Source: Escherichia phage KIT06
Reading direction: 5' to 3' (one strand)
Sequence record: OQ349392.1
DNA length: 64,000 nucleotides
The position numbers were made by a program, and so were the translations under genes. Below the pieces are notes generated by a model. That model made no database searches and was not told the DNA's origin. It saw only the letters and a list, made by a program, of their open reading frames with translations. Shown piece after piece: positions 7,238 through 23,697 of this stretch (the stretch's first letter is position 1; each line of letters begins with the position of its first letter).

Positions 7238-7486
7238 ATGATTAAACAATTACAACACGCTCTTGAACTGCAACGAAACGCATGGAATAATGGTCACGAA
7301 AACTATGGCGCATCTATTGATGTTGAAGCCGAAGCTCTTGAAATCCTGCGTTATTTCAAACATCTGAATCCTGCTCAAACTGCATTAGCTGCTGAGCTCC
7401 AGGAAAAAGATGAACTTAAGTATGCTAAGCCTCTGGCTTCTGCTGCACGAAAAGCAGTTCGTCACTTTGTGGTAACACTGAAGTAA
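7238..7486 (+). CDS. rIII: rIII lysis inhibition accessory protein, 82 aa
   Basis: 82-aa ORF MIKQLQHALELQRNAWNNGHENYG matches remembered T4 RIII; position after gene 31. Confidence 0.85.
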   Translation: MIKQLQHALELQRNAWNNGHENYGASIDVEAEALEILRYFKHLNPAQTALAAELQEKDELKYAKPLASAARKAVRHFVVTLK

Positions 7487-7883
7487 TTTATTGGAGATTC
7501 ACTGCCTTAGTGTGAGCTAAAATCGAGGAGCCGTCGAACTGTCTGATTAATGATTTGCGAATCATTATAGTTTTAAGACCCCGGCAGTTTTACGGTGTAC
7601 CTCTTGAATGTTATTCTTATAGCGGCAAGTGCATGCTACCCCGAGGTGATGGCTAATCGGGAGTACGCCTCAAGGCCTATATATCCATCAGTATATATCT
7701 TATCCTCGAGAAATCGAACCCGGAACCTTTAAGCTAACGGTGTGCAACAGATAAGAGCTATAAGGTATGATGACGGGTTTATGGTTATCCTGTCGGTAAA
7801 TATTCAAAACCTAAGTACCCCTTTGAGGGCTTTCGCAGGCAATGCCAATAAGTCCTGCATTTTCATTTAAAAGAGAATTTATA

Positions 7884-8060
7884 ATGGCAAAACAAGCTAA
7901 AGCAAAGAAAGCAGTTGAAAAGAAAGTTGGTGATTCTAAACGCGCTGGCTACAAGCGTGGGTCGAACTCTCGTATCAATCAAACTGTTGAGAAGATCATG
8001 CGCCGAGCACGTGCGGTTCTTCGAGATGATGCTTCTCGTTTTGGTAAGCAGAAAGCATAA
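7884..8060 (+). CDS. Small lysine/arginine-rich hypothetical protein, 58 aa (30.9 position)
   Basis: ORF track 7842..8060; ATG at 7884 (MAKQAKAKKAVEKK...) preferred; followed immediately by a strong hairpin-plus-T-run terminator. Confidence 0.5.
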   Translation: MAKQAKAKKAVEKKVGDSKRAGYKRGSNSRINQTVEKIMRRARAVLRDDASRFGKQKA

Positions 8061-8064
8061 GTTG

Positions 8065-8094
8065 AGGACTCCTTCGGGAGTCCTTTTTTATTTT
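8065..8094 (+). terminator. Intrinsic terminator: 8-bp stem AGGACTCC-TTCG-GGAGTCCT plus TTTTTTATTTT
   Basis: Perfect stem, UUCG tetraloop, long T-run immediately after the 58-aa ORF stop. Confidence 0.65.
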
Positions 8095-8113
8095 CCAAAG
8101 ATTGCACAAAGTT

Positions 8114-8143
8114 GTTTACAGTATAGTTCCTTTGTGATAGTAT
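8114..8143 (+). promoter_or_regulatory. Early-type promoter candidate (GTTTAC ... TAGTAT) within a CACAAAG/CTTTGTG stem-loop
   Basis: gtttac at 8114-8119, -10-like tagtat about 18 bp downstream; upstream of ORF 8171. Confidence 0.45.
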
Positions 8144-8170
8144 TATCTTACACAAACAAAGGAGAATAAA

Positions 8171-8503
8171 ATGAAAACGATTAATCTGAACGCTACAGTT
8201 AAAACTAAATGCTTCAATGGTAAATATGATGAAACTATGTGGTTCTTAATGGCAGTTGAAGGTGATATTATTGAAGTAGAAACAACAGAAGGTATGGGAA
8301 CAGATTTCACCTTTACAATTCAAGTTCATAATTTCTTTACTGGTTGGATTTATGAATTGAATACAGTAATCGTTGGAAAAATTGAACAAAATGAATTGGG
8401 TGAATGGTATTATGTTACAGCTCGCCAGCGTGCCGAACGCTTAATTGAGAAGATGAAAAAAGTTGGTAAACTTGACATGCAGCACTGGAAAGTAGTAAAA
8501 TAA
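8171..8503 (+). CDS. Hypothetical protein, 110 aa
   Basis: ORF track; GGAGAATAAAATG ribosome-binding context; early-promoter-like element upstream. Confidence 0.65.
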   Translation: MKTINLNATVKTKCFNGKYDETMWFLMAVEGDIIEVETTEGMGTDFTFTIQVHNFFTGWIYELNTVIVGKIEQNELGEWYYVTARQRAERLIEKMKKVGKLDMQHWKVVK

Positions 8504-8505
8504 TT

Positions 8506-8535
8506 GTTTACTTTGGTACAGGATATGATATTATA
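8506..8535 (+). promoter_or_regulatory. Early-type promoter candidate (GTTTAC ... TATTAT) with GGTACAGG/CCTGTACC stem-loop
   Basis: gtttac at 8506-8511, tattat about 17 bp downstream inside hairpin loop; upstream of ORF 8572. Confidence 0.45.
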
Positions 8536-8571
8536 TACCTGTACCGCAATTAAACATCTCGGAGAATAAAA

Positions 8572-8937
8572 ATGAACTACATCAACTTTGAACGTAAATA
8601 TGTTTCTAATGGTATTGCAGGTTCTATTGATACTATCTGCCTTTGGAAACATCAAAATGGATCAGTATGCGAAATTGAACAGTATATGACTCCTAACTAC
8701 GTTTATATGCGATTTGAAAATGGCATCACGGTTTCAATCACGAAAGAAGGTTCTTCTTTTAAAATCGCATTAGATGATGATTTCCGTCAACGTGATTTAG
8801 GTACCCATCCTTGCTGGAACGGCGTTAATCGTAAGCTTCTGGTTAAAACTTGGATTCGTCATATTCTGAGTAACAGAGCTAAACCTGAGCATCTTGAAGC
8901 GATCTTTGATGTAGTTCTTAACGAATTTGATATTTAA
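8572..8937 (+). CDS. Hypothetical protein, 121 aa
   Basis: ORF track; same GGAGAATAAAAATG context as previous gene. Confidence 0.65.
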   Translation: MNYINFERKYVSNGIAGSIDTICLWKHQNGSVCEIEQYMTPNYVYMRFENGITVSITKEGSSFKIALDDDFRQRDLGTHPCWNGVNRKLLVKTWIRHILSNRAKPEHLEAIFDVVLNEFDI

Positions 8938-8977
8938 AATAAAACAGGGGCTTCGGCCCCTTACTGAGGAAAATACT

Positions 8978-9265
8978 ATGTTTATGACTACTTATTTTGA
9001 TACCCGTAAAAACTTCTGTGAAGTAGTTTTCTCTAAGGCGCCTAAAGACCTTCCTGCTCATTTGCAACCTACCAGTGAATCAATTAAAAACTACGTTAAT
9101 GTAGTCTGCCCTTTAGAGTTTCGTACTGTAAATGGGCGTGATACTCTAGCTATCACTAAACTTAATCGTGAAATTGACATTGACCCTTCAATTGCGCGTG
9201 AAATTAACATTTCTGATATTGGCGGCGGTAATGTTAAATCGCATGGTTTTCAGATGAGGTTCTAA
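8978..9265 (+). CDS. Hypothetical protein, 95 aa
   Basis: ORF track 8927..9265 starts at TTG inside a hairpin; trimmed to ATG at 8978 preceded by GAGGA. Confidence 0.6.
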   Translation: MFMTTYFDTRKNFCEVVFSKAPKDLPAHLQPTSESIKNYVNVVCPLEFRTVNGRDTLAITKLNREIDIDPSIAREINISDIGGGNVKSHGFQMRF

Positions 9266-9462
9266 TGAAATTCTTTTTAGGTCAAACTGTTGAATTAAAG
9301 GGAGTTGGTATACCTGGATTAATTTCTAAGGTTCTATCTCCATTTAAATGGAGTGGTATTCAAATAAAAGAGGCTTATATTGTTTCCTGGGTAGATGGAA
9401 ATGAAGACCTTCGTATGGGCGATGAATTATCTCCTATCTATGGATTAAAGGAATTAGTATGA
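9265..9462 (+). CDS. Hypothetical protein, 65 aa
   Basis: ORF track; TAATG overlap with upstream gene. Confidence 0.55.
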   Translation: MKFFLGQTVELKGVGIPGLISKVLSPFKWSGIQIKEAYIVSWVDGNEDLRMGDELSPIYGLKELV

Positions 9463-9665
9463 ATATAATTAATAAGATTTTTGGAATTCAGTACATTAAG
9501 GTCACATATAAAGTAACGTATAAAGGTCCGTATACCGATGAACATGAAGAGCCGCAAGTTAAGTCTATTATATTAGAAAAGGACCCTAACTGGCCAATTG
9601 AATTTCGTCTTCCTTGCTATGGTCATTGGGCTGATGTTGAAATTATAAGTATTGAAAATGTCTGA
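9459..9665 (+). CDS. Hypothetical protein, 68 aa
   Basis: ORF track; ATGA overlap with upstream gene. Confidence 0.55.
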   Translation: MNIINKIFGIQYIKVTYKVTYKGPYTDEHEEPQVKSIILEKDPNWPIEFRLPCYGHWADVEIISIENV

Positions 9666-10116
9666 GTTAGAGATTAGAAGCAATTTTAGATGGCCATCAT
9701 GTGCATTAAGTAATTTCGCCCAATGGCCTTTTGTTATGGATGGTATCCAATTTGGAGGTCTCGAAGGATTCCTCCAAGGATGCAAGGTGAAAAATGTTGA
9801 ACAACAGCGTCGTATATTTGGGTTATCCGGGCTTGCCGCCCAACAAGCTGGAAGGTCTTATGCAAGAGCTCAGGACCATGGCACGTTGTTCTGGCTTGGA
9901 ACTCCGTTTTCAAGATATTCCGAAGCATGGAAAGAATTATACACAAATGCATATTTTGAAGCCGCGATCCAAAACAAGGGGTTTCGTGATGCCTTACAAG
10001 CCTCTAAAGGAAAAATTTTGAAGCACAGCATGGCTAGCGGTCTAACAAAAGATGATACAATACTAACCGAAGCTGAATTTATTGATGTGTTAAACCTATT
10101 AAGAGACTCTCTATGA
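9658..10116 (+). CDS. NADAR/YbiA-like (DUF1768-type) protein, 152 aa (30.3 position)
   Basis: ORF track 9652..10116 starts at TTG; ATG at 9658. Segment ALSNFAQWPFVMDGIQFGGLEGFLQGCK resembles the remembered YbiA/NADAR core (SNFxxWP...DG...F...E..FQ..K). Family assignment is from memory of the motif only. Confidence 0.6.
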   Translation: MSELEIRSNFRWPSCALSNFAQWPFVMDGIQFGGLEGFLQGCKVKNVEQQRRIFGLSGLAAQQAGRSYARAQDHGTLFWLGTPFSRYSEAWKELYTNAYFEAAIQNKGFRDALQASKGKILKHSMASGLTKDDTILTEAEFIDVLNLLRDSL

Positions 10117-10943
10117 AGCCAACTATTTTGACTGATATTGATGGAGTATGTTTAAGCTGGCAATCAGGCCTTCCTTATTTTGCTCAGAAATATAATCTTC
10201 CGTTAGAACATATTTTAAAAATGATCCAAGATGAGAAATTTATTTCTCCAGGTAAACTCTTTAATTGTGACGAAGAACTTGGCGTCAAGTTAATTGAAAA
10301 ATACAATCGTTCAGATTTTATTCGTTACTTGTCTCCGTATAAAGATGCCCTGTGTGTAATTAACAAATTAAAAGAAGATTATAATTTTGTAGCTGTTACA
10401 GCATTGGGTGATTCTATTGACGCTCTGTTGAATCGTCAATTTAATTTGAATGCTCTTTTTCCTGGTGCTTTCTCGGAAGTAATGATGTGTGGTCATGATT
10501 CTTCAAAAGAAGAGCTGTTCAAAAAGGCAAAAGAGAAATATAACGTAATTTGTTATATTGACGATCTCGCTCATCACTGCGATCATGCGAGTGAAATATT
10601 AAATGTTCCTGTTTATTGGATGGCTCGAGGGGAGCGTGATAATATTCCAAAAACTGCTCAGCGAGTTTATACATGGAATGATGTAGAAAATAAGCTTTTT
10701 TCGCCGAAGGAAAATAAAGAAAGTTTTGATAGTGAAAAAGCTATAAAAGATTTAATTGAGAAGATGGTTAAAAACGATTCTTTTCCTTGGAACACTACCT
10801 GGAGAACGCCTGGATTAAATCCTTATAATCATCCATATCAGACACATCCGTTTCAGACATGGAACTATATTAAACCTGGTGGCATAGAGTATTTGTATAA
10901 TAGACCTACTAGTGGTGATAATATTTTTCAAGGAGCATTCTAA
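10113..10943 (+). CDS. HAD-superfamily-like hydrolase, possible nucleotidase, 276 aa (30.2 position)
   Basis: N-terminal ILTDIDGV (HAD motif I DxDGx), later VAVTA and YIDDLAHH consistent with HAD motifs II and IV. Confidence 0.65.
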   Translation: MKPTILTDIDGVCLSWQSGLPYFAQKYNLPLEHILKMIQDEKFISPGKLFNCDEELGVKLIEKYNRSDFIRYLSPYKDALCVINKLKEDYNFVAVTALGDSIDALLNRQFNLNALFPGAFSEVMMCGHDSSKEELFKKAKEKYNVICYIDDLAHHCDHASEILNVPVYWMARGERDNIPKTAQRVYTWNDVENKLFSPKENKESFDSEKAIKDLIEKMVKNDSFPWNTTWRTPGLNPYNHPYQTHPFQTWNYIKPGGIEYLYNRPTSGDNIFQGAF

Positions 10944-11209
10944 TGTTTGTTGTTCATACTATTTATGAAAATGAAGGTAATACTACACGTGATTACGGTC
11001 ACGTAAATCAATTTTTTAGATGCAATCCAGAATTCCGTGCTCAAAAAGACGAACGAATTTTTAAAAAATGTGTAGAACAAGGTTTCATTTACGTCAAGCA
11101 CTGGATGCAAGGAAATAAAGTTAGAACTACATATCATAAGTCTTTGCCTGAGCTTAATGATGAATTGATTTATAATAGAGCTGTAAACCAAACCTTGAAG
11201 GATGAATAA
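10943..11209 (+). CDS. Hypothetical protein, 88 aa (30.1 position)
   Basis: ORF track; AAGGAG SD; stop overlaps ligase start. Confidence 0.6.
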   Translation: MFVVHTIYENEGNTTRDYGHVNQFFRCNPEFRAQKDERIFKKCVEQGFIYVKHWMQGNKVRTTYHKSLPELNDELIYNRAVNQTLKDE

Positions 11210-12669
11210 TGATTCTTAAAATTCTGAATGAAATAGCATCTATTGGTTCAACTAAGCAGAAGCAAGCAATTCTTGAAAAGAATAAAGATAATGAATTGCT
11301 TAAACGAGTATATCGTCTGACTTATTCTCGTGGGTTACAGTATTATATCAAGAAATGGCCTAAACCTGGTATTGCTACCCAGAGTTTTGGAATGCTGACT
11401 ATTACCGATATGCTTGACTTCATTGAATTCACGTTAGCTACTCGGAAATTAACTGGCAATGCAGCAATTGAGGAATTAACTGGATATATCACCGATGGTA
11501 AAAAGGATGATGTTGAAGTTTTGCGTCGAGTTATGATGCGAGACCTTGAATGCGGTGCTTCAGTATCTATTGCAAACAAAGTTTGGCCAGGTTTAATTCC
11601 TGAACAACCTCAAATGCTGGCAAGTTCTTATGATGAAAAAGGCATTAGTAAGAATATCAAGTTTCCAGCTTTTGCGCAGTTAAAAGCAGATGGAGCTCGG
11701 TGTTTTGCTGAAGTCCGAGGTGATGAATTAGATGATGTTCGTCTTTTATCACGAGCTGGCAATGAATACCTAGGATTAGATCTTCTTAAGGAAGAGTTAA
11801 TCAAAATGACTGCTGAAGCCCGCCAGATTCATCCAGAAGGTGTGTTAATTGATGGCGAATTGGTATACCATGAGCAAGTTGAAAAGGAACCAGAAGGCCT
11901 AGATTTTCTTTTTGATGCTCCTGAAATCAGTAAAGCTAAAGAATTCGCCGAAGTAGCTGAATCACGTACTGCTTCTAATGGAATCGCCAATAAATCTTTA
12001 AAGGGAACTATTTCAGAAAAAGAAGCCAAATGTATGAAGTTTCAGGTCTGGGATTATGTTCCGTTGGTAGAAATATACGGTCTTCCGGCGTTTCGTTTAA
12101 AATATGATGTACGTTTTTCTAAACTAGAACAAATGACATCAGGATATGATAAAGTAATTTTAATTGAAAACCAAGTAGTAAATAACCTAGATGAAGCTAA
12201 GGTAATTTATAAAAAATATATTGACCAAGGTCTTGAAGGTATTATTCTCAAAAATACCGATGGATTGTGGGAAAATGCTCGTTCAAAAAATCTCTATAAA
12301 TTTAAAGAAGTAATTGATGTTGATTTAAAAATTGTAGGAATTTATCCTCACCGTAAAGACCCTACTAAAGCAGGTGGATTTATTCTTGAGTCAGAGTGTG
12401 GAAAAATTAAAGTAAATGCTGGTTCAGGCTTAAAAGATAAAGCCGGTGTAAAATCACATGAACTTGACCGTACTCGCATTATGGAAAACCAAAATTATTA
12501 TATTGGAAAAATTCTAGAGTGCGAATGCAACGGTTGGCTAAAATCTGATGGCCGCACTGATTACGTAAAATTATTTCTTCCAATTGCGATTCGTTTGCGT
12601 GAAGATAAAACAAAAGCTAATACATTCGAGGATGTATTTGGTGATTTTCATGAGGTAACTGGTCTATGA
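11209..12669 (+). CDS. 30: ATP-dependent DNA ligase, 486 aa
   Basis: Adenylation motif KADGAR; MILKILNEIASIGSTKQKQAILEKNKDNELL matches remembered T4 gp30. Confidence 0.95.
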   Translation: MILKILNEIASIGSTKQKQAILEKNKDNELLKRVYRLTYSRGLQYYIKKWPKPGIATQSFGMLTITDMLDFIEFTLATRKLTGNAAIEELTGYITDGKKDDVEVLRRVMMRDLECGASVSIANKVWPGLIPEQPQMLASSYDEKGISKNIKFPAFAQLKADGARCFAEVRGDELDDVRLLSRAGNEYLGLDLLKEELIKMTAEARQIHPEGVLIDGELVYHEQVEKEPEGLDFLFDAPEISKAKEFAEVAESRTASNGIANKSLKGTISEKEAKCMKFQVWDYVPLVEIYGLPAFRLKYDVRFSKLEQMTSGYDKVILIENQVVNNLDEAKVIYKKYIDQGLEGIILKNTDGLWENARSKNLYKFKEVIDVDLKIVGIYPHRKDPTKAGGFILESECGKIKVNAGSGLKDKAGVKSHELDRTRIMENQNYYIGKILECECNGWLKSDGRTDYVKLFLPIAIRLREDKTKANTFEDVFGDFHEVTGL

Positions 12670-12854
12670 AAGCTTACTTAGAAACAATTGTCATTGCTCA
12701 AAAAGAAGGTGGAGATGTTTCTACTTCTGTATCACAAGTCATTCTCGAATTTGTAGATGCATATGCTTATAATAAATTTACAGAAACATTTGATGCCTAC
12801 GAAAAAGGTCCAAAGTTTGAAATATATCGTACTCTCTTACCATTAGATTATTAA
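12666..12854 (+). CDS. Hypothetical protein, 62 aa
   Basis: ORF track; coupled to ligase stop; followed by hairpin terminator. Confidence 0.55.
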   Translation: MKAYLETIVIAQKEGGDVSTSVSQVILEFVDAYAYNKFTETFDAYEKGPKFEIYRTLLPLDY

Positions 12855-12855
12855 A

Positions 12856-12871
12856 GGCCTTCGGGCCTTTA
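12856..12871 (+). terminator. Hairpin AAGGCC-TTCG-GGCCTT after the gene 30 operon
   Basis: 6-bp stem, UUCG loop, followed by TTTAATTTTA. Confidence 0.5.
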
Positions 12872-12875
12872 ATTT

Positions 12876-12883
12876 TATAAATA
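12876..12883 (+). promoter_or_regulatory. Late promoter TATAAATA for alt
   Basis: Exact TATAAATA about 20 nt upstream of the alt ATG; Alt is a late, head-packaged protein in T4. Confidence 0.6.
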
Positions 12884-12903
12884 GAATAAACACTAGAGAG
12901 GAT

Positions 12904-15000
12904 ATGATGGAACTCATTACAGAATTATTTGACGAAGATACTACTCTTCCGATTACAAACTTAAATCCAAAGAAGAAAATACCGCAAATTTTTTCAGTTC
13001 ATGTTGATGACGCAATTGAACAACCAGGCTTTCGTTTATGTACCTATACATCTGGAGGTGATACTAACCGTGATCTAAAGATGGGCGATAAAATGATGCA
13101 CATTGTTCCTTTTACATTAACTGCTAAAGGTTCAATTGCTAAATTGAAAGGTCTCGGTCCAAGCCCAATTAATTACATCAATTCAGTTTTTACTGTTGCG
13201 ATGCAAACGATGCGTCAGTATAAAATTGATGCCTGCATGCTTCGTATTCTTAAGTCTAAAACTGCCGGTCAAGCTCGACAAATTCAAGTTATTGCTGATA
13301 GACTTATCCGTAGTCGTTCGGGTGGCAGATACGTCCTTCTTAAGGAACTCTGGGATTACGATAAAAAGTACGCATATATTCTTATACATCGCAAAAATGT
13401 ATCACTAGAAGACATTCCAGGAGTTCCGGAAATTAGTACCGAGCTCTTTACTAAAGTTGAATCGAAAGTCGGCGATGTTTATATCAATAAAGATACTGGA
13501 GCTCAAGTAACTAAAAATGAGGCAATTGCTGCATCTATTGCGCAAGAAAATGATAAGCGTTCTGACCAAGCTGTAATCGTTAAAGTTAAAATTTCCCGTA
13601 GAGCAATTGCGCAAAGTCAGTCATTGGAATCTTCTAGATTTGAAAGCGAATTATTCCAGAAATATGAATCTACCGCAGCTAATTTCAATAAACCCGCTAC
13701 AGCTCCTTTAATTCCCGAAGCAGAAGAAATGAAGCTTGGAATTAATTCATTAGCTTCTAAAACTAAGGCAGCAAAAATTATTGCTGAAGGAACTGCAGAT
13801 GAACTTCACTATGACTATAAATTCTTTTCAAAAAGTGAGGTTAATGAAGTTTCTGAAAAAATTAAAGACGTAATTCTTAATGCGATTAAAAATGAACCAA
13901 CTACTTCAATAAAATGTTTAGAGAAGTATGCAGCAGCTATTAATAAATTCTTTGAAGAATATAAAGATACTTGGCTTGATAAACATAATAAAACCCGTAA
14001 AGGACAGCCAGATGAAGTCTGGGAAGAAATAACTAAAAATTCCTGGAACGCAGCAAAAACTAAATTCCTCAAACGAATGATTTATAGCTTTTCTGGAATT
14101 GGTGCAGGTCCAATGATTGATATTACTATTGCCCGTGATGGTTCTAAATATACTCCATCACAAAAGCGCGGCATTAGAGAATATTGTGGTTCAGGATATA
14201 CTGACATCAATAATCTTCTTTTAGGACGCTACAATCCAGAACGATATGATGTAATGAGTGAAAAAGAAATTGAATCTGCGATAAATAATTTAGATTCAGC
14301 CTTTGAAAATGGTGACCGTATACCAGAAGGCATTACAGTTTATCGTGCTCAAAGTATGACTGCTCCTATATACGAAGCGCTAGTTAAAAATAAAGTGTTC
14401 TATTTCAGAAATTTTGTATCTACTTCTTTAACTCCTATCATTTTTGGACGTTTTGGAATTACACATGCTGGTATCGGTCTTTTAGAACCAGAAGCTCGTA
14501 ATGAATTAACAGTTGATAAAAATGAAGAAGGAATAACTATTAATCCGAACGAAATAAGAGCGTATAAAGAAAATCCTGAATACGTTAAAGTTCAAATAGG
14601 ATGGGCAATTGATGGAGCTCATAAAGTTAATGTTGTATATCCAGGGAGTCTCGGAATAGCAACAGAAGCTGAAGTAATTCTACCACGCGGATTGATGGTC
14701 AAAGTTAATAAAATAACTGATGCTTCTAATAATGACGGAACAACATCTAATAACACAAAACTCATTCAAGCTGAAGTTATGACTACGGAAGAACTCACCG
14801 AATCAGTAATTTATGACGGTGACCGTCTAATGGAAACTGGTGAAGTAGTTGCAATGACAGATGATATTGAAATAGAAGACAGAGTTGACTTTGCATCATT
14901 TGTTTCATCAAATGTTAAACAGAAAGCAGAATCATCTCTCGGAATTATTGCGTCTTGCATAGATATTACAAACATGCCTTACAAGTTCGTTCAAGGATAA
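12904..15000 (+). CDS. alt: Alt-family mono-ADP-ribosyltransferase (head-packaged), 698 aa
   Basis: N-terminus MELITELFD (LxE-type prohead-protease site); R-S-E ADP-ribosyltransferase triad context (YRAQS, FVSTSLTP, ATEAEVILPRG); late promoter TATAAATA about 25 bp upstream. May start at the second ATG (12907). Confidence 0.85.
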   Translation: MMELITELFDEDTTLPITNLNPKKKIPQIFSVHVDDAIEQPGFRLCTYTSGGDTNRDLKMGDKMMHIVPFTLTAKGSIAKLKGLGPSPINYINSVFTVAMQTMRQYKIDACMLRILKSKTAGQARQIQVIADRLIRSRSGGRYVLLKELWDYDKKYAYILIHRKNVSLEDIPGVPEISTELFTKVESKVGDVYINKDTGAQVTKNEAIAASIAQENDKRSDQAVIVKVKISRRAIAQSQSLESSRFESELFQKYESTAANFNKPATAPLIPEAEEMKLGINSLASKTKAAKIIAEGTADELHYDYKFFSKSEVNEVSEKIKDVILNAIKNEPTTSIKCLEKYAAAINKFFEEYKDTWLDKHNKTRKGQPDEVWEEITKNSWNAAKTKFLKRMIYSFSGIGAGPMIDITIARDGSKYTPSQKRGIREYCGSGYTDINNLLLGRYNPERYDVMSEKEIESAINNLDSAFENGDRIPEGITVYRAQSMTAPIYEALVKNKVFYFRNFVSTSLTPIIFGRFGITHAGIGLLEPEARNELTVDKNEEGITINPNEIRAYKENPEYVKVQIGWAIDGAHKVNVVYPGSLGIATEAEVILPRGLMVKVNKITDASNNDGTTSNNTKLIQAEVMTTEELTESVIYDGDRLMETGEVVAMTDDIEIEDRVDFASFVSSNVKQKAESSLGIIASCIDITNMPYKFVQG

Positions 15001-15003
15001 ATC

Positions 15004-17061
15004 ATGGAACTTATTACAGAATTATTTGACGGCGCTTCGGCGCCGGTTGTTAACTTAAATCCTAAGCATAAAATACCTCAAATTTTTGCTATTCAAGCCG
15101 GCGAAGAAAGTGTGCTTCCTGGATTTAGATTTTGTACATACACCTCTGGCGGTGATACAAATAAAAACGTTAAGCCAGGCGATAAAATGATGCATATCGT
15201 AATGATAGGTGTTAATGAGAAACTATCATTAGTTAAACTTAAAAACTTGGGTGGAAATCCAATTGGTGTCATTAATGCAGTTTTTGATACTGCTCTTCAA
15301 ACAATGAAACAGTATAAAATTGACGCATGCTTATTCCGCGTACTAAAGAGTAAAACAAATGGCGCTGCTCGTCAAATGCAAGTTATTGCCGACCGTTTAG
15401 TACGTACTAAAGGAGCAGGTCGATATGTTCTTTTAAAGGAAATCTGGGACTATGATAAGAAATATGCATATATTATGGTTTACCGTAAAAATGCCAATTT
15501 AGAAGACATTCCAGGTGTACCTCCTATTTCAACTGAGTTATTCACAAAAGTTGAATCAAAGGTTGGTGATGTTTATGTAGATGTTAAAACAGGTAATGCT
15601 GTTCCTAAAGCTGTTGCTGTTGCTGCTTCTATTGCTTTAGAAAATGATAAGCGTACGGATCAAGCTGTTATTCAGAAAACTAAAATTAGCCGTCGATTAG
15701 CAGCTCAGGCTCAATATTCTACTGTCGATGCTTCACTTCAGGGTGATAGCTTCGCTGCTAAGAAATATCAAGAGTTTGAATCTAAAGTTCCGGTATATAA
15801 AGCAGAAGGACCAATGAACTCTGGCGTTATTCAGGTTGGTTCAAACTTCAGTAAAGGAGCTATCGGTGGTATGAGAAGTGCTTCTCGTTTTAAATCTAGT
15901 GATTATGAACTAGAAAGCTTCAGAAATCATATTGCATTGGCTCATGCACGTTTACGTGATCCATCTATCAAGTTACAGAGCGATATAACATATCAAGGTT
16001 CTCAGGAATATTTAAAGAATAAAGAATTTTTTGATTATAAAACTGATAAAATTTTAAGCGATCTCGCTGACATTAATATTTCTAATAGCTTTGATGTTAT
16101 TAAGAAAATTATCAATGATTTAGTTAAAGGTTCTAAAGCCACGCCAGATGAAAAGGTAGCTATTGTTCAATTTGTCATGAATGGCATTTATAAATTGATT
16201 AATGAGTCTGCTTCTCAAGCGTATGAATATGCAAGTACTGAAGTACCCCCAAAAGGATTAACTCGGGCTGAGTCTGATGTAATTGAAGATTATTGCGCAG
16301 ATTCATATGTTGAAATGAACTCGTTCCTTTTAGGTAAACCAGATTCTACTCGTGAAGAATACATGGAACGAGCTATTAAACACATCGAGACAATGGATTC
16401 TGCCTTTGCCAAAGGATCAGTTCTTCCTCCAGGAACTACGCTTTATCGTGGACAAGAAGTTACTTTTAAAACTTTACGCCATAATATTGAAAATAAAATG
16501 TTCTATTTCAAGAACTTCGTATCAACATCGCTTAAACCAAATATCTTCGGTGAGTATGGTAAAAACTATATGGCCCTAGATGATTCTGGTGCAGTATTTT
16601 CTGGTGAAGGAGAAGGTTCAGTTGATGCTGAAGATTTAATGCATATGGGCAGTCACTCTGCTTACGCGAATGAAGATGCTGAAACTAGCGTGGGTATGGT
16701 AATTAAAGGGGCTGAGCGAATCAAAGTTATCGTTCCAGGTCATTTATCAGGATTTCCATCAGAAGCTGAAGTTATTCTACCGCGCGGAATTTTACTGAAG
16801 ATTAATAAAGTAAGTACGTACTTTATGAAAGAAACTGCTTATAACAAGTATCTAATAGAAGGTACAATCGTTCCTCCTTCTGAACAATTAGAGGAATCGG
16901 TATATGATGGCGAGCATCTAATGGAAACTGGCGAAGTTCGTCCAATGGCTGGATTTAATCAATTCCTTGTAGAAGAATCAAAAGAAGAGGAAAACGAAGT
17001 TTCTCAAATCTTGGCTTCTTTGGTTAACATCAACGGAATGTCTAAAAAGTTCAAAATGTAG
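15004..17061 (+). CDS. Second Alt-family ADP-ribosyltransferase paralog, 685 aa
   Basis: Same N-terminal MELITELFD, conserved first ~230 aa, diverged middle, conserved ART motifs (YRGQE, FVSTSLKP, PSEAEVILPRG) and C-terminal ESVYDGEHLMETGEV; starts 3 nt after the first alt stop. Confidence 0.85.
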   Translation: MELITELFDGASAPVVNLNPKHKIPQIFAIQAGEESVLPGFRFCTYTSGGDTNKNVKPGDKMMHIVMIGVNEKLSLVKLKNLGGNPIGVINAVFDTALQTMKQYKIDACLFRVLKSKTNGAARQMQVIADRLVRTKGAGRYVLLKEIWDYDKKYAYIMVYRKNANLEDIPGVPPISTELFTKVESKVGDVYVDVKTGNAVPKAVAVAASIALENDKRTDQAVIQKTKISRRLAAQAQYSTVDASLQGDSFAAKKYQEFESKVPVYKAEGPMNSGVIQVGSNFSKGAIGGMRSASRFKSSDYELESFRNHIALAHARLRDPSIKLQSDITYQGSQEYLKNKEFFDYKTDKILSDLADINISNSFDVIKKIINDLVKGSKATPDEKVAIVQFVMNGIYKLINESASQAYEYASTEVPPKGLTRAESDVIEDYCADSYVEMNSFLLGKPDSTREEYMERAIKHIETMDSAFAKGSVLPPGTTLYRGQEVTFKTLRHNIENKMFYFKNFVSTSLKPNIFGEYGKNYMALDDSGAVFSGEGEGSVDAEDLMHMGSHSAYANEDAETSVGMVIKGAERIKVIVPGHLSGFPSEAEVILPRGILLKINKVSTYFMKETAYNKYLIEGTIVPPSEQLEESVYDGEHLMETGEVRPMAGFNQFLVEESKEEENEVSQILASLVNINGMSKKFKM

Positions 17062-17114
17062 TTTACAAGTCCCTCGTGTTGTGTTACAGTAGTCTTACTG
17101 ACATAACATGAGGA
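17061..17114 (+). repeat. 54-bp perfect direct repeat, copy 2 (after alt paralog, before 96-aa ORF)
   Basis: Identical to 1966-2019; first base is the last base of the upstream TAG stop; ends in GAGGA 7 nt before the ATG at 17122. Confidence 0.85.
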
Positions 17115-17121
17115 ACACAAA

Positions 17122-17412
17122 ATGAAATCTTCTTTACGCTTTTTAGGTCAAGAACTTGTAGTTGAAGGCGTTATTCCTGCTGATAATGCTTTTAATGAAG
17201 CAGTTTACGATGAATTTATTAAAATTTTTGGAACAGATAAAAAGTTCGGAATTTTTCCTTCTGAAAATTTTTCAAAGCCAGAACAGACTGAAAGCATTTT
17301 CCAAGGTGTAGTAACAGGCAAATTTGAGTCAGAAGCTCCGGTAAAAATTGAAGTTTATATTGAAGACAGTTTAGTTGCTTCAGTTGCTGCTTTTATTTCA
17401 TTCCGTAAATAA
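17122..17412 (+). CDS. Hypothetical protein, 96 aa
   Basis: ORF track; preceded by the 54-bp repeat cassette providing GAGGA SD. Confidence 0.6.
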   Translation: MKSSLRFLGQELVVEGVIPADNAFNEAVYDEFIKIFGTDKKFGIFPSENFSKPEQTESIFQGVVTGKFESEAPVKIEVYIEDSLVASVAAFISFRK

Positions 17413-17418
17413 AAACAT

Positions 17419-17436
17419 GGGGACCGAAAGGTCCCC
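17419..17436. terminator. Bidirectional hairpin GGGGACC-GAAA-GGTCCCC between convergent 96-aa ORF and gene 54
   Basis: 7-bp GC stem with GAAA tetraloop between two convergent stops. Confidence 0.55.
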
Positions 17437-17440
17437 GTTG

Positions 17441-18406
17441 TTATATTGCTCCTAATATTTTACTCTGCGAATTGACAATCCCTGTCATAGTATTAATGTT
17501 TGAAATGCTTCCCGCAGTTCCTCCTAATCTACTAAGTCGTGAAAGCGAATTAGATAGTCCAGTAACACCTCCGCTATTTCCGAGAACGCTTTGAATGCCA
17601 TTTATAGCAGCAGATTCAAGCCATTCAAGCGCAGCTTGTCTATCAACCGACCCAGCCTGCATGACTCTATACGCAAAAGTAACATCAAATGTAGTTATTT
17701 GGTTATCTCCATCATATGATAACTCAGGAGCGCTCACTGACACTGGAATGCATCCGGTGAACATCACCGCAGTATGAGGCAATCCATTGCGAGCATGAAG
17801 ATTAACTTGAATATCTGCCTCGACATCTTGTGGCAAAGCACGCAATCCAGTTACTGGGTCTTGAACAGCGTTAACCCAGTCTTGCATTGCACGATAGTTA
17901 CATGCTTCTGAATCCATTCTAAATGAAATAACCAAAGGGTCTAATTCTCTTCCGGTTATGCGAATATTAGGAGAATTGTAGTTCCAGTCAGTTTCATAGG
18001 ATAATCTATTCTCTGGCATTTTTACAGAATATATCATCAATCCAGATGAGTTATATGCCATGTTAAAGAAGTCAATTAAATATGTACCAACTGTAAATGA
18101 GCCCAATAAACTTTGAACCGTACGTTGACTCATGGCACCAATAAGATATTTACTAACCCCTGATTTTCTTATCAGTTTTTGTGTGCCAGCTGTAATTAGC
18201 GTAGTAATTCCCTGATTAATATCACCTTGAGTTAATCCTAACCAATCTGAATTTAGGCCCAAGTTATTATAAGAAAAGTTGCTAATTGAACTTATCAACG
18301 AAGAGCTTTTAGTTGATGGAGTTGTTGCAAAAACGCAGCTAAACATATTATTACGTTGGAAATCTGCGTTTATTGCTTGATTATTAAATTCCTCTAAAGA
18401 ATACAT
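17441..18406 (-). CDS. 54: Baseplate tail-tube initiator gp54
   Basis: 321-aa ORF MYSLEEFNNQAINADFQRNN... as remembered for T4 gp54; last gene of the 51-27-28-29-48-54 late operon. Confidence 0.9.
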   Translation of the reverse strand: MYSLEEFNNQAINADFQRNNMFSCVFATTPSTKSSSLISSISNFSYNNLGLNSDWLGLTQGDINQGITTLITAGTQKLIRKSGVSKYLIGAMSQRTVQSLLGSFTVGTYLIDFFNMAYNSSGLMIYSVKMPENRLSYETDWNYNSPNIRITGRELDPLVISFRMDSEACNYRAMQDWVNAVQDPVTGLRALPQDVEADIQVNLHARNGLPHTAVMFTGCIPVSVSAPELSYDGDNQITTFDVTFAYRVMQAGSVDRQAALEWLESAAINGIQSVLGNSGGVTGLSNSLSRLSRLGGTAGSISNINTMTGIVNSQSKILGAI

Positions 18407-19500
18407 TAAAAAGTCCCCGCATATAAAGAAGCACGGTTTAACGTGATAATTTCTCTCATAGTAATCTCGAGAGTAAATGTACTAGGGAGGTTTGGAGCAA
18501 TAGCTAATCCGTTAAAGTTACCATTAGGTGTTTTATCAAATCTAATGCTCTGTATTTGGCATGGACCAAATATTTCCGTTTTTCCATCAAACTTAGATGT
18601 TGCACCAAAGTTTTTCACCATCCAAACTGTCGGGTTTGAAACTACAAGAACGTTCGTTAAACTTGCTGTCATTTTCTCAAATAGTGTTTTATTTTTAGCT
18701 GCGTCTTCCGGAGATAAAGGTTCAATTAATGTAGAACGATACCAATCATCTAAATACCCCTTTATTTCAGCAGCATATTGAGATTTGCCAGTTTCACCAT
18801 AAGAAAAATAGTTAAAATATTGATAGATATTGATAATAGCCATCAAATCTTCTGTTGAACGTGGAGTCAAATCCCATGTAAACACTTTAGTTCTATTTTC
18901 AGCACCACCATACATACTTCTGGCTGTCGTATAAATCTGCTCATTATTATCAGCCATTATACCTTGTGTTATACTTTCCAGTGCCCCAAATACTGCGGTT
19001 GAAGCAATATTACTTAGCACACCAGTAGCAGTACCTCCGCCTCTACTAATAAGACTTTCTTGAACATCATTAAATCTATGTGATGATGTGTCAACATCAG
19101 ATTTAGATCTCGGTAAAAGAATGTTTGCGACAGGAGCTTTACTTATTGTTCCTGAATTGTTATTTGATATTAATCCATTTGATAGTTTTGATACTGTACT
19201 ACTAATAGTGTTTCTAGCTGTACTTAAAATACTCGAAGATGAAGAAGAGTAGTTAGATCTCATCGATCTAAGACTTCCAGAATCCCTAGATGACATATTG
19301 TATGCAGTAAATAATAATCCATTCTTATATAGATCTGTTACCTGGAAGTCCCCTGTAGTGTCATTACCACTAGCACGCCCAGTTGGAAACTGGGCGGTGT
19401 ATGTTTTAGTTGCTACTTCTGATTTAGTACTCTGTCCGGCTGAAATTTTCTCACCGGACTTTTTAATTAAATCAGCAGTTATTTCTTTAACAATTGCCAT
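18406..19500 (-). CDS. 48: Baseplate tail-tube cap gp48
   Basis: 364-aa ORF, length and synteny as T4 gp48; stop overlaps gene 54 start. Confidence 0.9.
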   Translation of the reverse strand: MAIVKEITADLIKKSGEKISAGQSTKSEVATKTYTAQFPTGRASGNDTTGDFQVTDLYKNGLLFTAYNMSSRDSGSLRSMRSNYSSSSSSILSTARNTISSTVSKLSNGLISNNNSGTISKAPVANILLPRSKSDVDTSSHRFNDVQESLISRGGGTATGVLSNIASTAVFGALESITQGIMADNNEQIYTTARSMYGGAENRTKVFTWDLTPRSTEDLMAIINIYQYFNYFSYGETGKSQYAAEIKGYLDDWYRSTLIEPLSPEDAAKNKTLFEKMTASLTNVLVVSNPTVWMVKNFGATSKFDGKTEIFGPCQIQSIRFDKTPNGNFNGLAIAPNLPSTFTLEITMREIITLNRASLYAGTF

Positions 19501-19508
19501 ATTATTCC

Positions 19509-21281
19509 TTAATTAACTCCAGTCGCATCAAATACACCAGGAGCAGTTGTACTCGTAACAGGTGTCATATTATGAACGACAGTATTTTTCTTAACAACAT
19601 TATTAGTATTATTGATCGAAGGAGATGCTTGTTGAACAGGAGCTTGTTGTGCTTTGTTCTTTTCAATAACCTGGACCTGTTTAGCTTCTGGTGATTTAGC
19701 AGAAGTTTCAGGTTTGGCATTAGGCTGATTTTTCTTGAGCTCTTGATAAGTAGCATCAATTTTAGAAAATCTAGCAGCAAGTTCTTTTTTAACTGCCGGT
19801 GAATTATTTAAATCAGGGTCATCCATCCGTTTTTTAAGGTCTTCATAGGCAGCTTCAACTGATTTAACTGTTGAGTCTTTACTCATATCAGCCGAATCAG
19901 CATATTTTTCAAAGCGAATCATTGCGGCACGGGCTTCATTAGCCTTCATTAAAGCATTTTTTCTTTCTTCTGGTGAAAGTTGCTTTAATTTTTCTTCTTC
20001 TGCTGCACGTTCTTCGTCGGTAGTTAGTGCTTCTTTATTATCAACGCCACGAATCCAGTTAGATGCACGAGTTTTCCAATTAGCAATTTTATCTAATCCT
20101 TTTGCTATCGGACCAAGGTCTCCGTTCATTCGTTTATCTTGATAATTTGCAACTTTTTCCTGGTCTTCTTTATTGAGAGATGCTCCAGTAGAATTTTGGA
20201 AATTTTCTAGTGCTCTTCCTTCTACTTCATCAGCAGTATCCTTCATACCAGGAATGACTCGAAGAATTGCCGCAGATAATTTAGCCATACCTAATTGAAT
20301 AAGTTCACCTAAATTGTAAAGAACCTTTCCAAGCCCTTCTACAATAGCTACCGTCAAACCACCCCAATCTCCCTCTTCCCAGAATTTTTTAATTTCATCA
20401 ATAGAACTAAAGATGCTCTGTAATAAAGGACCCCATGTTCCGGTTTCGCTAGAGAATTTAGTAAAGTTTGAACTAAACAAATCCCAAGCCTGCGAAAATT
20501 TATCTGACCAATATTTAAAGTGAACCATCAGCAGATCTATTCCAACAACAACAGCCAATATCATTGCAGTCATTTTAGCGGCTTCAATAGCAGCACTGAC
20601 AGTATACTTAAATAACATGCTTGATATTTTATCAGTAATTGAAATGGATTTCTTAAATCCAAAATCAACAGTCTTTGTTAATTTATCTAAAGCTTGAGAT
20701 AATTTTAAGTTAAATGCGTCTTTTTTCTGTTTTTCTTCTGGCGATTCTTGTTTGGGCTCAACTGGCTGAGGGGTAGGGAAAAAATCAGCATCAGGATCAT
20801 TATTAACTGCTTCAGGAGCTGGTAATAAAGGACCAACAGATTCAGCTGTATCATCCTCAACAACTTTAACAGGAATAGCGCTTTCAACCGTGGCTAAACT
20901 AGTTCCTGTTTGTTGAATTCCGGCTGTCTGAATTTTTTGCTCTAGTAAACTCGTTAATTTATCTAATTTGCTCCCGAGTGATTCACCGATTTCTTTATTA
21001 ATATTATTGCCAATTTCGACAGTTTCAGCAATTAACTCAGAACCAGCAGTAGTATCACTCACTGCGTTTTCTACGCTGTCAATTGCTCCAATTATTTCAT
21101 TCGATTTTTCTTCGACAGTTTGAGCAATTAACTCAGAAGCAGCTTGAGCATCATCCAATTTCGTAGATATATCGTTAAGTCCAGATAAAGTGTTAGAAGC
21201 GGATTTAGCCGCTTCCTGTGTTGGTTTATTATCTGAAATAACTTTTCTACGCATCGTTTGCATTTCTTGTGGCTTTTTCAT
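19509..21281 (-). CDS. 29: Baseplate hub / tail length tape-measure protein gp29
   Basis: 590-aa ORF, synteny and length as T4 gp29. Confidence 0.9.
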   Translation of the reverse strand: MKKPQEMQTMRRKVISDNKPTQEAAKSASNTLSGLNDISTKLDDAQAASELIAQTVEEKSNEIIGAIDSVENAVSDTTAGSELIAETVEIGNNINKEIGESLGSKLDKLTSLLEQKIQTAGIQQTGTSLATVESAIPVKVVEDDTAESVGPLLPAPEAVNNDPDADFFPTPQPVEPKQESPEEKQKKDAFNLKLSQALDKLTKTVDFGFKKSISITDKISSMLFKYTVSAAIEAAKMTAMILAVVVGIDLLMVHFKYWSDKFSQAWDLFSSNFTKFSSETGTWGPLLQSIFSSIDEIKKFWEEGDWGGLTVAIVEGLGKVLYNLGELIQLGMAKLSAAILRVIPGMKDTADEVEGRALENFQNSTGASLNKEDQEKVANYQDKRMNGDLGPIAKGLDKIANWKTRASNWIRGVDNKEALTTDEERAAEEEKLKQLSPEERKNALMKANEARAAMIRFEKYADSADMSKDSTVKSVEAAYEDLKKRMDDPDLNNSPAVKKELAARFSKIDATYQELKKNQPNAKPETSAKSPEAKQVQVIEKNKAQQAPVQQASPSINNTNNVVKKNTVVHNMTPVTSTTAPGVFDATGVN

Positions 21282-21811
21282 TCAAATAATCCAATAATAT
21301 TGCCAATTCCGGTTATTGGACCATTAGGGCCAGGAATTGCTAAAGTTGTAAAAATATCATTTGCCCATTTTAAAACGAATGCTGGCATCTCAAGAAAATT
21401 AATTTCTTTAACTTCATCATTGACCTTAAGCAAGCATTTGGATAACATATCGCTCACCGTTAAAAATTGTTCAAATTTTCCAGGAGGTCTAAAATAAAAT
21501 GTATTTCCTTGGTATTGAAATTCTAATCTTTGGCACACATAAACATCATTAATGTCATAAGTATAACCATCTATTTCTTTACGAGATTTAATCTTTCCAT
21601 TAAATTCCAATAAATGAATAGAAACGAAATCAACTTCTGCCGGTGATAAATTCGGACAAATAGAATCAATAAGAAGTTTTAAATTTTCATCAGGACCTTT
21701 AACATCTTTTAAAATGTTATAGTGTTTAAGACCCATTTTAGGAATAGAAACTTCTTTATTGCTTATTGGAAGAACTACTTTCTTCAGTGGTAGTATCAGA
21801 TTTAAATTCAT
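21278..21811 (-). CDS. 28: Baseplate hub distal subunit gp28
   Basis: 177-aa ORF, synteny and length as T4 gp28. Confidence 0.85.
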
Positions 21812-22931
21812 TTTTAACCTTAACTGGGTCTATTGTTTCCAGTTTCGTTGCATTAGTGAACATATATAGATGAGTTACTGAATTATTATTGGATAATTCA
21901 TGGATGACTTCATCAACGTAAAATTCTGTTTTAAATTGGTTTTTACTATCATTAAAAATAATTTTAACGCCAGGTGTCAAGTTAAAATTACCGACAGTGG
22001 AACATTTAGCATAGCCGTCATATTGCGCCATAGTTTGAAGACGAATAGCTTCTTCATATCCATTCCTATAAGTCATTTCAGAATAAGCACCTGACCTTGA
22101 CACTACAATAGAGTTTTCTCCCTTTCCTGTAGTAATCATTGGCAATGAAGAATCTAAAAATGAATGCGCGTAGATAGTAGCGTTTTTCATTGGGTCGCGT
22201 TTGTGAGGATTCGATTTAGTCAACCAAACGAAATCATATGCTAATGGATATTTTAATTCTTGGATGAATTGACCTATTAAAGATGGCTCACCGACAATCA
22301 TTGGATACGGTTCTTGATTTATCATCATATCATAGTCCATCATGTTAACTCCCATGATGTCTTGCCACACAAATACAAATTTGTCACTTCCTACAGCTAG
22401 AGCAACTTCTCTAACATACGACAAATAGTTTTCAAATGTGCTAGTCCATGGAATATCAGGAACATAAGCATTTATAGCATTTATTGCTGGAGTTAATAAC
22501 GTGCGATCTTGATAAATGACGCCAAGCATTTCCTTTATAGATTCACCTGCATCAGGGAAAAACGGTCTGCCAAATTTAAGATTTTCTATAGAATGAATAG
22601 TTCCCAATTCAATAGCAATGATGTTATCACCCTTTGAATCTACTGACACGGAAAAATGCTTACATCCATAAATTCGTGTTTTAACATTATTAATATCGTT
22701 TGCATTAGCTACAGAAATCTGAATTATTTCATTTCCATCCATTTTTGTATGGATATTTTTAGAATCATAAAACTGCAGCATTCCTTCATTTCGACCATAA
22801 AGAGAATCCCGCATAGTTAATGTGGTAATAGTAGCAGCTAATTCAACAAATCTATTATTACTCCAAGCGTCGTAGCTATCAAATAATTTAACGCTGAGAT
22901 TTGGATATCCTGGGCGTTGCAACATACTCAT
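21756..22931 (-). CDS. 27: Baseplate hub subunit gp27
   Basis: 391-aa [20 protein letters not shown]...; synteny and length as T4 gp27. Confidence 0.9.
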
Positions 22932-23680: not shown

Positions 23681-23697
23681 AGATGCTCCTTTTATTC

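Follow-up and report, generated by a model that had tools for sequence, protein, structure and literature searches.

Two tandem genes of the Alt family of ADP-ribosyltransferases (ARTs) were analysed at positions 12,904 to 17,061 of a 64,000-nucleotide (nt) stretch of Escherichia phage KIT06 (OQ349392.1), this whole stretch being referred to below as the window. As judged from their sequences, the two open reading frames, ORF1 and ORF2, encode intact, full-length Alt-family ARTs that retain all catalytic residues and are almost certainly functional. The explanation favoured here, to which we give a probability of roughly 70%, is that they are two functional Alt members expressed from one late operon, ORF1 being the T2/T6-type allele of alt and ORF2 the ancestral intact gene, and that both products would be packaged, processed, injected and directed at partly different targets, the locus itself evolving by recombination.

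The two-Alt arrangement as such is already known, common and annotated, and it belongs to a known family. What is added here is the reading of T4 alt.-1 and alt.-2 as a deletion remnant of ORF2, the retention in ORF2 of both sites for the prohead protease gp21, the strong purifying selection acting on ORF2, and the evidence for segmental exchange at the locus.

Gene pair, domains and catalytic motifs

The two frames extend from 12904 to 15000 (698 amino acids, aa) and from 15004 to 17061 (685 aa) with a 3-nt gap (ATC, 15001-15003), just as an earlier note on this DNA had placed them. The same note had both proteins beginning with MELITELFD, which is the case for ORF2, and for ORF1 only from its second ATG at 12907, the frame read from 12904 starting with MMELITELFD. 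The ORF1 product is most likely the 697-aa protein starting with MELITELFD, because the Shine-Dalgarno sequence GAGG (12898-12901) lies 5 nt ahead of the second ATG and just 2 nt ahead of the first, and because the alt annotations of T4, T2 and T6 all start at that second ATG. The features of the pair are listed below (pI, isoelectric point; ARTT, ADP-ribosylating turn-turn loop).

12876-12883, + strand: T4 late-promoter motif TATAAATA, 21-24 nt upstream of the ORF1 start
12907-15000, + strand: ORF1, the T2/T6-type allele of alt, 697 aa if started at the second ATG (698 aa from 12904)
12907-12924, + strand: ORF1 N-terminal propeptide MELITE, predicted gp21 cut after E6 (I-T-E), identical in sequence to the mapped site of T4 Alt
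12925-13620, + strand: ORF1 N-domain, residues 7-238, basic (pI 9.5), alpha/beta, Tevenvirinae_ADPRT region
13621-14151, + strand: ORF1 central helical domain, residues 239-415, ORF1/T2/T6 type
14152-14802, + strand: ORF1 ART domain, residues 416-632, motifs R480, S505-T-S507 and E587-A-E589; predicted gp21 site L-T-E632 at its end
14803-14997, + strand: ORF1 acidic C-terminal propeptide, 65 aa, pI 4.1, last ~45 residues (652-697) predicted disordered
14993-14997, + strand: ORF2 Shine-Dalgarno AAGGA, within the final ORF1 codons, 6 nt before the ORF2 ATG
15004-17061, + strand: ORF2, second Alt paralogue, intact form of T4 alt.-1/alt.-2, 685 aa
15004-15021, + strand: ORF2 N-terminal propeptide MELITE, predicted gp21 cut after E6
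15022-15717, + strand: ORF2 N-domain, residues 7-238, pI 9.7, 67% identical to the ORF1 N-domain
15343-15351, + strand: left direct repeat CTAAAGAGT (CTAAAAAGT in T2 and T6), 9 bp, T4 deletion junction
15718-16248, + strand: ORF2 central helical domain, residues 239-415
16249-16896, + strand: ORF2 ART domain, residues 416-631, motifs R482, S507-T-S509 and E587-A-E589, ARTT position occupied by F584; predicted gp21 site L-E-E631 at its end
16897-17058, + strand: ORF2 acidic C-terminal propeptide, 54 aa, pI 4.6, predicted disordered
17042-17050, + strand: right direct repeat CTAAAAAGT, T4 deletion junction

Over their full length, ORF1 and ORF2 are 41% identical (BLASTP, E 2e-156), and this identity is very unevenly distributed. 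In ORF2 residue numbering, it amounts to 67% over residues 1-238 (the earlier note had estimated about 70% likeness for the first 230), 14% over 239-415, 37% over 416-520, 17% in the insert at 521-572, 38% over 573-622 and 34% over the last 63 residues. The ART motifs quoted in that note (YRAQ and YRGQ, FVSTSL, EAEVILPRG) are exact in both proteins, and careful alignment leaves neither paralogue without the R, S-T-S and E-x-E residues. These correspond to R480, S505, S507, E587 and E589 in ORF1, and to R482, S507, S509, E587 and E589 in ORF2; the five positions are invariant in a 19-member family alignment and present in 56 to 57 of 59 diverse members.

Both proteins match the Pfam family PF03496 ADPrib_exo_Tox (1.6e-37 for ORF1 and 1.3e-19 for ORF2) and belong to PHROG 802, "Alt-like RNA polymerase ADP-ribosyltransferase". 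With phmmer, TVYR and EAEV of ORF1 align to the catalytic Arg and the E-x-E of CdtA and iota toxin Ia, and the ART-domain fold of a modelled Alt protein matches Vis and C3. Among solved structures searched by sequence, ORF2 had no match at E<=0.01 and ORF1 had only weak CdtA/iota matches over the ART core; no Alt structure was found. Compared with the toxins of the R-S-E clade (C3, iota Ia, CDTa, VIP2 and Vis), identity is ~15-24%, a long insert separates the STS strand from the ARTT loop in the phage proteins, and Alt relies on injection from the phage head vs. a binary-toxin pore or secretion.

As for the central domains, no profile-profile homology was detected between the ORF2 type and the ORF1/T4 type (hhalign probability 0.2%), while the ORF2 type is related to a third class (P0013-P0016; hhalign 96.9%). 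Both are modelled as helical bundles of equal size with parallel helix patterns. When the ORF2 central domain was the sole query, a single short fragment came back and not even the cluster of full-length ORF2 was recovered; this search therefore says nothing about how the domain is distributed.

In the literature on T4, an Alt variant named "E577A" has been shown to be inactive (PMC11404850). With the T4 protein numbered over 682 residues, the ExE motif is E574-M-E576, so the published number appears offset by one and fits only if counted from an upstream in-frame ATG (MMELITE...), also present here at 12904. The mutated residue would then be the second Glu of ExE, equivalent to E589 in both ORFs.

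The T4 remnant, distribution and history of the pair

Whether T4 carries a second full-length paralogue had been left as a question in the earlier note; it does not, and only the remnant alt.-1/alt.-2 is found there. In T4, alt (682 aa) is followed by alt.-1 (61 aa) and alt.-2 (67 aa), whose products are 95% and 98% identical to residues 1-56 and 62-116 of ORF2, respectively, vs. only 58-62% for ORF1. The PHROG families built on alt.-1 and alt.-2 match ORF2 at 2e-40 and 3e-38. At the DNA level, T4 matches the window up to 15351 and resumes at 17042, with 96% identity to the left of the deletion and 95% to its right. T4 lacks 1,699 bp, counted from one repeat start to the other, through an out-of-frame deletion between 9-bp CTAAA(A/G)AGT direct repeats, and a 1-nt deletion (frameshift) parts alt.-1 from alt.-2. 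Judged by these alignments, T4 alt.-1 and alt.-2 are the first 116 codons of ORF2, left over after a deletion. The junction, lying in a direct repeat, shows that the event was a deletion in T4 and not an insertion in T6.

Concerning the existing annotations, the T4 record calls alt.-1 and alt.-2 an old duplication of the first part of alt. The ORF2 orthologues of T6 (L005, MH550421, 8302-10359) and T2 (L004, AP018813, 5737-7794) are annotated "hypothetical protein", and the T6 record note "apparent insertion in alt.-2" has the direction of the event reversed. In the searchable literature, alt.-2 is mentioned only by Nolan et al. (2006), who counted T4 alt.-1/alt.-2, RB49 ORF183c and 44RR ORF188c among the paralogous duplications of alt and gave 44RR ORF187c as a duplicate of full length (PMC1524935). 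A 2026 paper reported two Alt-like paralogues (43% identity) in Tequatrovirus 6phi13 and also in SHFML-11 and proposed functional divergence after duplication (PMC13600099), a reading equal to the interpretation given in the earlier note.

The same pair, with equal gene lengths and spacing, is present in T2, T6 and Yersinia phage fD1. As a whole, 401 phage records hold ORF2 at a protein identity of at least 90%, 278 hold at least 80% of the whole two-gene stretch, and the ORF2 90%-identity cluster comprises 772 member sequences. The T4-type deletion junction occurs in 91 records, wild isolates included, that is, in about 18% of relatives. The allele of alt and the state of ORF2 are found in all combinations: ORF1-type alt with intact ORF2 (e.g. 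T2 and T6), T4-type alt with intact ORF2 (AR1, KNP5), ORF1-type alt with the deletion (slur03, VEc20) and T4-type alt with the deletion (T4). A single fused gene exists in vB_EcoM_KAW1E185 (NC_054922) and in a Logan contig of SRR24155011 (P0005, L003 6001-8055). T4 thus represents a minority genotype, ~4/5 of the sequenced relatives, plus T2 and T6, retaining the second enzyme, and almost all knowledge of injected phage ADP-ribosyltransferases derives from T4. The practical value of the present data is modest but concrete: a corrected reading of alt.-1/alt.-2 and of the T6 record, predicted processing sites and mature masses.

Most records label both genes as Alt-like ADP-ribosyltransferases. 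In some T4-like phages (Ec_Makalu_003, KFS-EC, Delraymugoa and the Acinetobacter phages ZZ1 and Henu6), the annotation divides the Alt homologue between two neighbouring ORFs ("split RNA polymerase ADP-ribosylase"), a layout that may stem from frameshifts or from a true split of the gene.

Strong purifying selection acts on ORF2. For the copies of the window, T2, T6 and fD1, the number of synonymous substitutions per synonymous site (dS) is 0.12-0.24 and the ratio of nonsynonymous to synonymous rates (dN/dS) 0.036-0.048; by domain, dN/dS is 0.027 in the N-domain, 0.060 in the central domain, 0.037 in the ART domain and 0.060 in the C-propeptide. The central domain, at 0.060, is therefore conserved within the ORF2 lineage and not rapidly diverging.

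The origin of the pair can be followed in Dhakavirus WG01 (L002, NC_031928, 2012-8124), which carries three tandem Alt-like genes (631, 693 and 707 aa) at the same locus. The first, gp201, is the most divergent, its central domain being 4-13% identical to those of ORF1, ORF2 and T4 Alt. The last, gp199, is 42-65% identical to ORF2 in most domains (29% for the ART insert). In all domains its synonymous sites are saturated, as in the flanking genes, whose dS between the window and WG01 ranges from 1.15 to saturation. By sequence and position, ORF2 and WG01 gp199 are vertical (positional) orthologues; the duplication is therefore older than the Tequatrovirus/Dhakavirus split. The 44RR genes ORF187c and ORF188c and RB49 ORF183c (PMC1524935) resemble the WG01 series gp201/gp200/gp199 in that one to three tandem Alt genes occupy the same locus. 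WG01 differs in copy number, and in that the ART domain of gp200 is near-identical to that of ORF1 but its N-domain only 46%.

ORF1 has a different history and is a mosaic, the past of its payload differing from that of its N-domain and C-propeptide. Compared with T4 Alt, its N-domain is 100% identical (dS 0.17) and its C-propeptide 89% (dS 0.19), values close to the genome background given by the ligase gene (0.16), vs. a dS of 1.44 (31% identity) in the central domain and of 1.04 (68-73% identity) in the ART domain. Compared with WG01 gp200, the situation is the opposite: the ART domain is 94-96% identical (dS 0.50, vs. about 2 for the flanking genes) and the central domain 66%, whereas the N-domain (46% identity) and the C-propeptide are at or beyond synonymous saturation. 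Since protein selection cannot hold synonymous sites, the ART segment must have moved between genera after their split. In the fused gene of the Logan contig (L003), the N-domain is of the ORF1 type up to the conserved KVESKVGDVY stretch and the body beyond is of the ORF2 type, as would be expected from unequal crossing-over between tandem N-domains. These data constitute evidence that ART payloads cross phage genera while the delivery parts stay lineage-specific.

The earlier note had seen in the pair a duplication followed by divergence of a target-recognition region. The tandem paralogues are real, but the duplication is old, ORF1 is a mosaic and the ORF2 central domain is conserved (dN/dS 0.06); as for the central 180-250 residues acting as a target-recognition element, nothing in the analysis shows such a role.

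Predicted head packaging, possible targets and competing explanations

With respect to expression, the TATAAATA motif at 12876-12883 is the sole late-promoter motif within positions 7,098-23,698. Motif and terminator scans revealed no promoter and no + strand terminator between ORF1 and ORF2, and the first + strand terminator past ORF1 is located at 17417-17438, after alt.-3. Because the late promoter stands only before ORF1, ORF2 has its own AAGGA and no + strand terminator precedes 17417-17438, the layout supports the prediction of one late operon.

About 40 copies of T4 Alt are found in the mature head and injected with the DNA (PMC9026906; PMC5694885). The prohead protease gp21 cuts this protein at ITE-6 and LTE-619, giving a mature form of 68.2 kDa by mass spectrometry (PMC5694885; PMC9026906), a mass that was reproduced here by mapping the T4 Alt sites. 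The gp21-type motifs of ORF1 (ITE6 and LTE632) and ORF2 (ITE6 and LEE631) fall in the same alignment columns. The earlier note had announced an LxE-type prohead-protease site: a site does lie at the N-terminus of both proteins, its motif being I-T-E, an I-x-E variant, and both also have a second, C-terminal gp21 site which that note did not contain. At the N-terminal site, position P3 is Leu or Ile in 52 and P1 is Glu in 56 of the 59 diverse members; at the C-terminal site, the corresponding numbers are 48 and 58.

In the structure model of ORF2, the low-confidence tails (1-11 and 629-685) start at the predicted cleavage sites, and in that of ORF1, the C-terminal low-confidence tail starts at 652, 20 residues past E632. 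Predicted masses are 78.0 kDa for the ORF1 precursor and 70.1 kDa for its mature form (7-632), and 76.0 and 69.1 kDa, respectively, for ORF2 (mature form 7-631); the two predicted mature proteins have no tryptic peptide of 7-25 residues in common, 33 peptides of this size being predicted for ORF2.

The N-domain of ORF2, searched alone against 1.84 billion representative proteins, was found in 69 clusters and nearly always at the N-terminus. Fifty-seven of the 59 aligned carriers share the PF03496 ART, and no further Pfam family turned up. The N-domain is therefore a family-specific part and not a general carrier, and its reading as a generic delivery module for varied payloads, as in polymorphic toxins, was rejected on this ground; the variation behind it concerns which ART allele and which central domain are carried, the payload class staying the same. 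A precomputed assignment to the Pfam family PF26846 (Tevenvirinae_ADPRT) exists for P0001, the 98%-identical cluster representative, and for every full-length relative listed; it is missing only from truncated clusters such as P0008 and P0010. A structure search with the N-domain gave no convincing structural relative. It presumably binds the phage's own prohead core, as a head-core anchoring module, a role fitting its basic pI (9.5-9.7), the lowest dN/dS in the protein and its lineage-following history. In their survey, Iyer et al. (2017) placed Alt outside the genuine polyvalent proteins.

Taken together, the late promoter, the family N-domain and both gp21 sites are consistent with head packaging of the two proteins. 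The closest known system is T4 Alt (gpAlt, NP_049811), which shares the locus (alt.1/gene 30 to alt.-3/gene 54), the late promoter, the four-part architecture, R-S-ExE and both gp21 sites. ORF1 differs from it as another allele, that of T2 and T6, and ORF2 by an identity of 41% overall and 8% in the central domain. The internal proteins IPI-IPIII of T4 are alike in their packaging in the prohead core, trimming by gp21 at L/I-x-E, injection with the DNA and variable loci; they have a 10-20-residue N-terminal targeting propeptide, whereas Alt proteins lose 6 N-terminal residues and a 54-65-residue C-propeptide and keep a conserved N-domain of 230 residues.

Regarding the targets, ORF1, ORF2 and T4 Alt all carry the arginine-specific E-x-E motif. 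At least 27 host proteins are targets of T4 Alt, RNA polymerase alpha (R265), EF-Tu and MazF among them (PMC8120803). T4 ModA and ModB are also arginine-specific enzymes, acting on host transcription and translation proteins, with an R-S-E ART core and ExE; they differ from Alt in being ~200 aa long, reduced to the ART core without N-domain, central domain or propeptides, made early and not packaged. They are 12-14% identical to the ORF2 ART region, and only the ExE region aligns convincingly.

Besides the central domain, two further features set ORF1 and ORF2 apart: the insert that separates the S-T-S strand from the ARTT loop (17% identity), and the residue three before the first catalytic Glu, which is F584 in ORF2, I584 in ORF1 and Pro in T4 Alt. 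This ARTT position is Y, F or H in 45 of the 59 family members, and in C3 and iota toxins it touches the substrate. It is plausible, in view of these differences, that ORF1 and ORF2 modify different sets of targets.

The course of events would be as follows. The late promoter at 12876 would drive both genes, ORF2 being translated from its own Shine-Dalgarno at the end of ORF1, and the 78- and 76-kDa precursors would enter the prohead core. There, gp21 would trim them after I-T-E6 and L-x-E632/631, removing the 6-residue N-propeptide and the 54-65-residue acidic, largely disordered C-propeptide. The mature enzymes of ~70 and ~69 kDa would remain in the head, be injected with the DNA and use NAD+ in the host to ADP-ribosylate arginines, as expected from the E-x-E type; owing to their different central domain, insert and ARTT position, they would probably modify partly different host proteins. 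On a longer time scale, payload segments are exchanged between phages, even of different genera, unequal crossing-over between N-domains fuses the pair, and a microhomology-mediated deletion has removed ORF2 in T4 and about 1/5 of its relatives.

A more far-reaching version is put forward tentatively, as it is in our view rather doubtful: the alt locus would be a payload-exchange cassette, in which a lineage-specific frame (basic N-domain and acidic C-propeptide) holds swapped central and ART segments, and ORF2 would be a second injected effector with targets of its own. Under such a cassette, the frame may co-evolve with its own prohead core and gp21, and the ORF2 target may be a component of a defence or toxin-antitoxin system, as MazF is for T4 Alt. 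If this were true, T4 would give too narrow a picture of the effectors injected by phages of its genus, and some of the differences between T2/T6 and T4 on particular hosts could be due to whether ORF2 is present.

Several points weigh against the explanation favoured here, that of two packaged enzymes with partly different targets. The L/I-x-E motif is short, with 7 such sites in ORF2 and 10 in ORF1; the motif alone is weak, and the argument for processing therefore rests on positional conservation. The text of the published fD1 virion proteome mentions neither g200 nor g201, the supplementary table page covering g190-g202 being illegible, and this proteome also lists clearly non-structural proteins (ligase, helicase) as particle-associated. 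The searchable literature contains no function, target or packaging evidence for the second paralogue; we infer the expression, packaging, cleavage and injection of the ORF2 product from sequence signals, and the enzymatic activity and targets of ORF2 and of the ORF1-type allele are likewise deduced. The role given to the ARTT position in Alt is carried over from the C3 and iota toxins. Finally, the models derive from shallow 19-sequence alignments, with a predicted local distance difference test (pLDDT) score of 74-75, and the similar central helix patterns may be an artefact of one mixed alignment feeding both models.

Among the other explanations, ORF2 could be a redundant dosage duplicate, packaged and active on the very targets of Alt (among them R265 of RNA polymerase alpha), which would provide more dose or a buffer against loss. 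The likeness of the two proteins in architecture, catalytic motifs and processing sites agrees with this, as do the promiscuity of T4 Alt, with its at least 27 targets (PMC8120803), and a pattern of interchangeable genes, since ~18% of relatives, T4 included, do without ORF2 and some phages keep only an ORF2-type payload. Nevertheless, we consider it unlikely: the paralogues have been distinct since before the Tequatrovirus/Dhakavirus split, each under strong purifying selection, their central domains are without detectable homology, the ARTT residue and the adjacent insert differ, and two diverged copies have long been retained together in ~400 genomes. A simple divergence after tandem duplication in this lineage, with drift or positive selection in the central region and no recombination, would account for tandem genes with collinear domains whose N-domains are 67% and central regions 14% identical. 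As the whole story, it is already contradicted by the dS discontinuities, ORF1 differing from T4 by 0.17-0.19 in the N-domain and C-propeptide but by 1.0-1.4 in the central and ART domains, and its ART from that of the Dhakavirus gene by 0.50 with flanks at 1.15 to saturation. The occurrence of all combinations of alt allele and ORF2 presence, the three copies already present in WG01 and the conservation of the central domain within ORF2 orthologues (dN/dS 0.06) do not fit it either, and its probability is low.

That ORF2 is not a virion protein and acts late in the cytoplasm, or that it is packaged without being injected, e.g. as a structural core component, is to be considered insofar as its packaging is only predicted and Alt itself has also been described as a head-core protein (PMC11404850). 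On the other hand, conserved gp21 sites, N-domain and C-propeptide make sense only inside a prohead, the N-domain has the lowest dN/dS (0.027) and the late promoter is shared with alt, so that we hold this to be very improbable. Even less credible, to the point of being nearly negligible, is the idea that ORF2 is decaying, or has become a pseudo-enzyme, and is heading for the condition seen in T4. It has been lost at least twice by different routes (the T4-type deletion in 91 records, and the fusion genes), but it keeps an intact frame and every catalytic residue, and near-identical copies of full length number in the hundreds. The pseudogene reading was rejected on the basis of dN/dS (~0.04) and motif conservation.

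Neighbouring genes and other signals

The window is a Tequatrovirus (T4-like) genome, with the gene order gene 30 DNA ligase, alt.1, ORF1, ORF2 and alt.-3, followed by genes 54 and 48 on the opposite strand. The proteins flanking the pair are 90-100% identical to those of T4, or 97-100% if the small alt.1 is set aside. The neighbouring features are as follows.

11209-12669: gene 30 DNA ligase
12666-12854, + strand: alt.1, 62 aa, Pfam PF24647 "Phage_blade" (1.9e-29), with a 4-nt overlap with the ligase stop codon
12845-12872, + strand: hairpin AAAGGCCTTCGGGCCTTT, GC-rich and with a T-run, lying between alt.1 and alt; terminator-like as read from the sequence
17122-17412, + strand: alt.-3 (DUF5498/PF17602), 96 aa, downstream neighbour outside the ART pair, given for context only

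The arrangement of the hairpin between alt.1 and alt (12845-12872) is identical in T4; it was not flagged by the terminator scan. In one phage record, the alt.1 homologue is labelled a double-stranded DNA-binding protein. In the whole window, 20 exact TATAAATA motifs were counted vs. 8.75 expected by shuffling, most of them on the minus strand between 23.7 and 58.7 kb, which would fit a cluster of late structural genes.

A sigma-70-like promoter at 17062-17090 on the + strand (TTTACA, 17-nt spacer, TACAGT, upstream TG) follows immediately on the ORF2 stop and may be an early promoter of alt.-3 itself. The sigma-70 scan of the region as a whole gave no overall signal, with 18 matches vs. 17.8 expected. 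The strong hairpin that separates alt.-3 from gene 54 (17417-17438) was scored as a terminator in both directions. The alt.-3 product is 100% identical to T4 Alt.-3, whose read-through mutants (110 or 117 aa) escape the CmdTAC defence system (PMC11618068).

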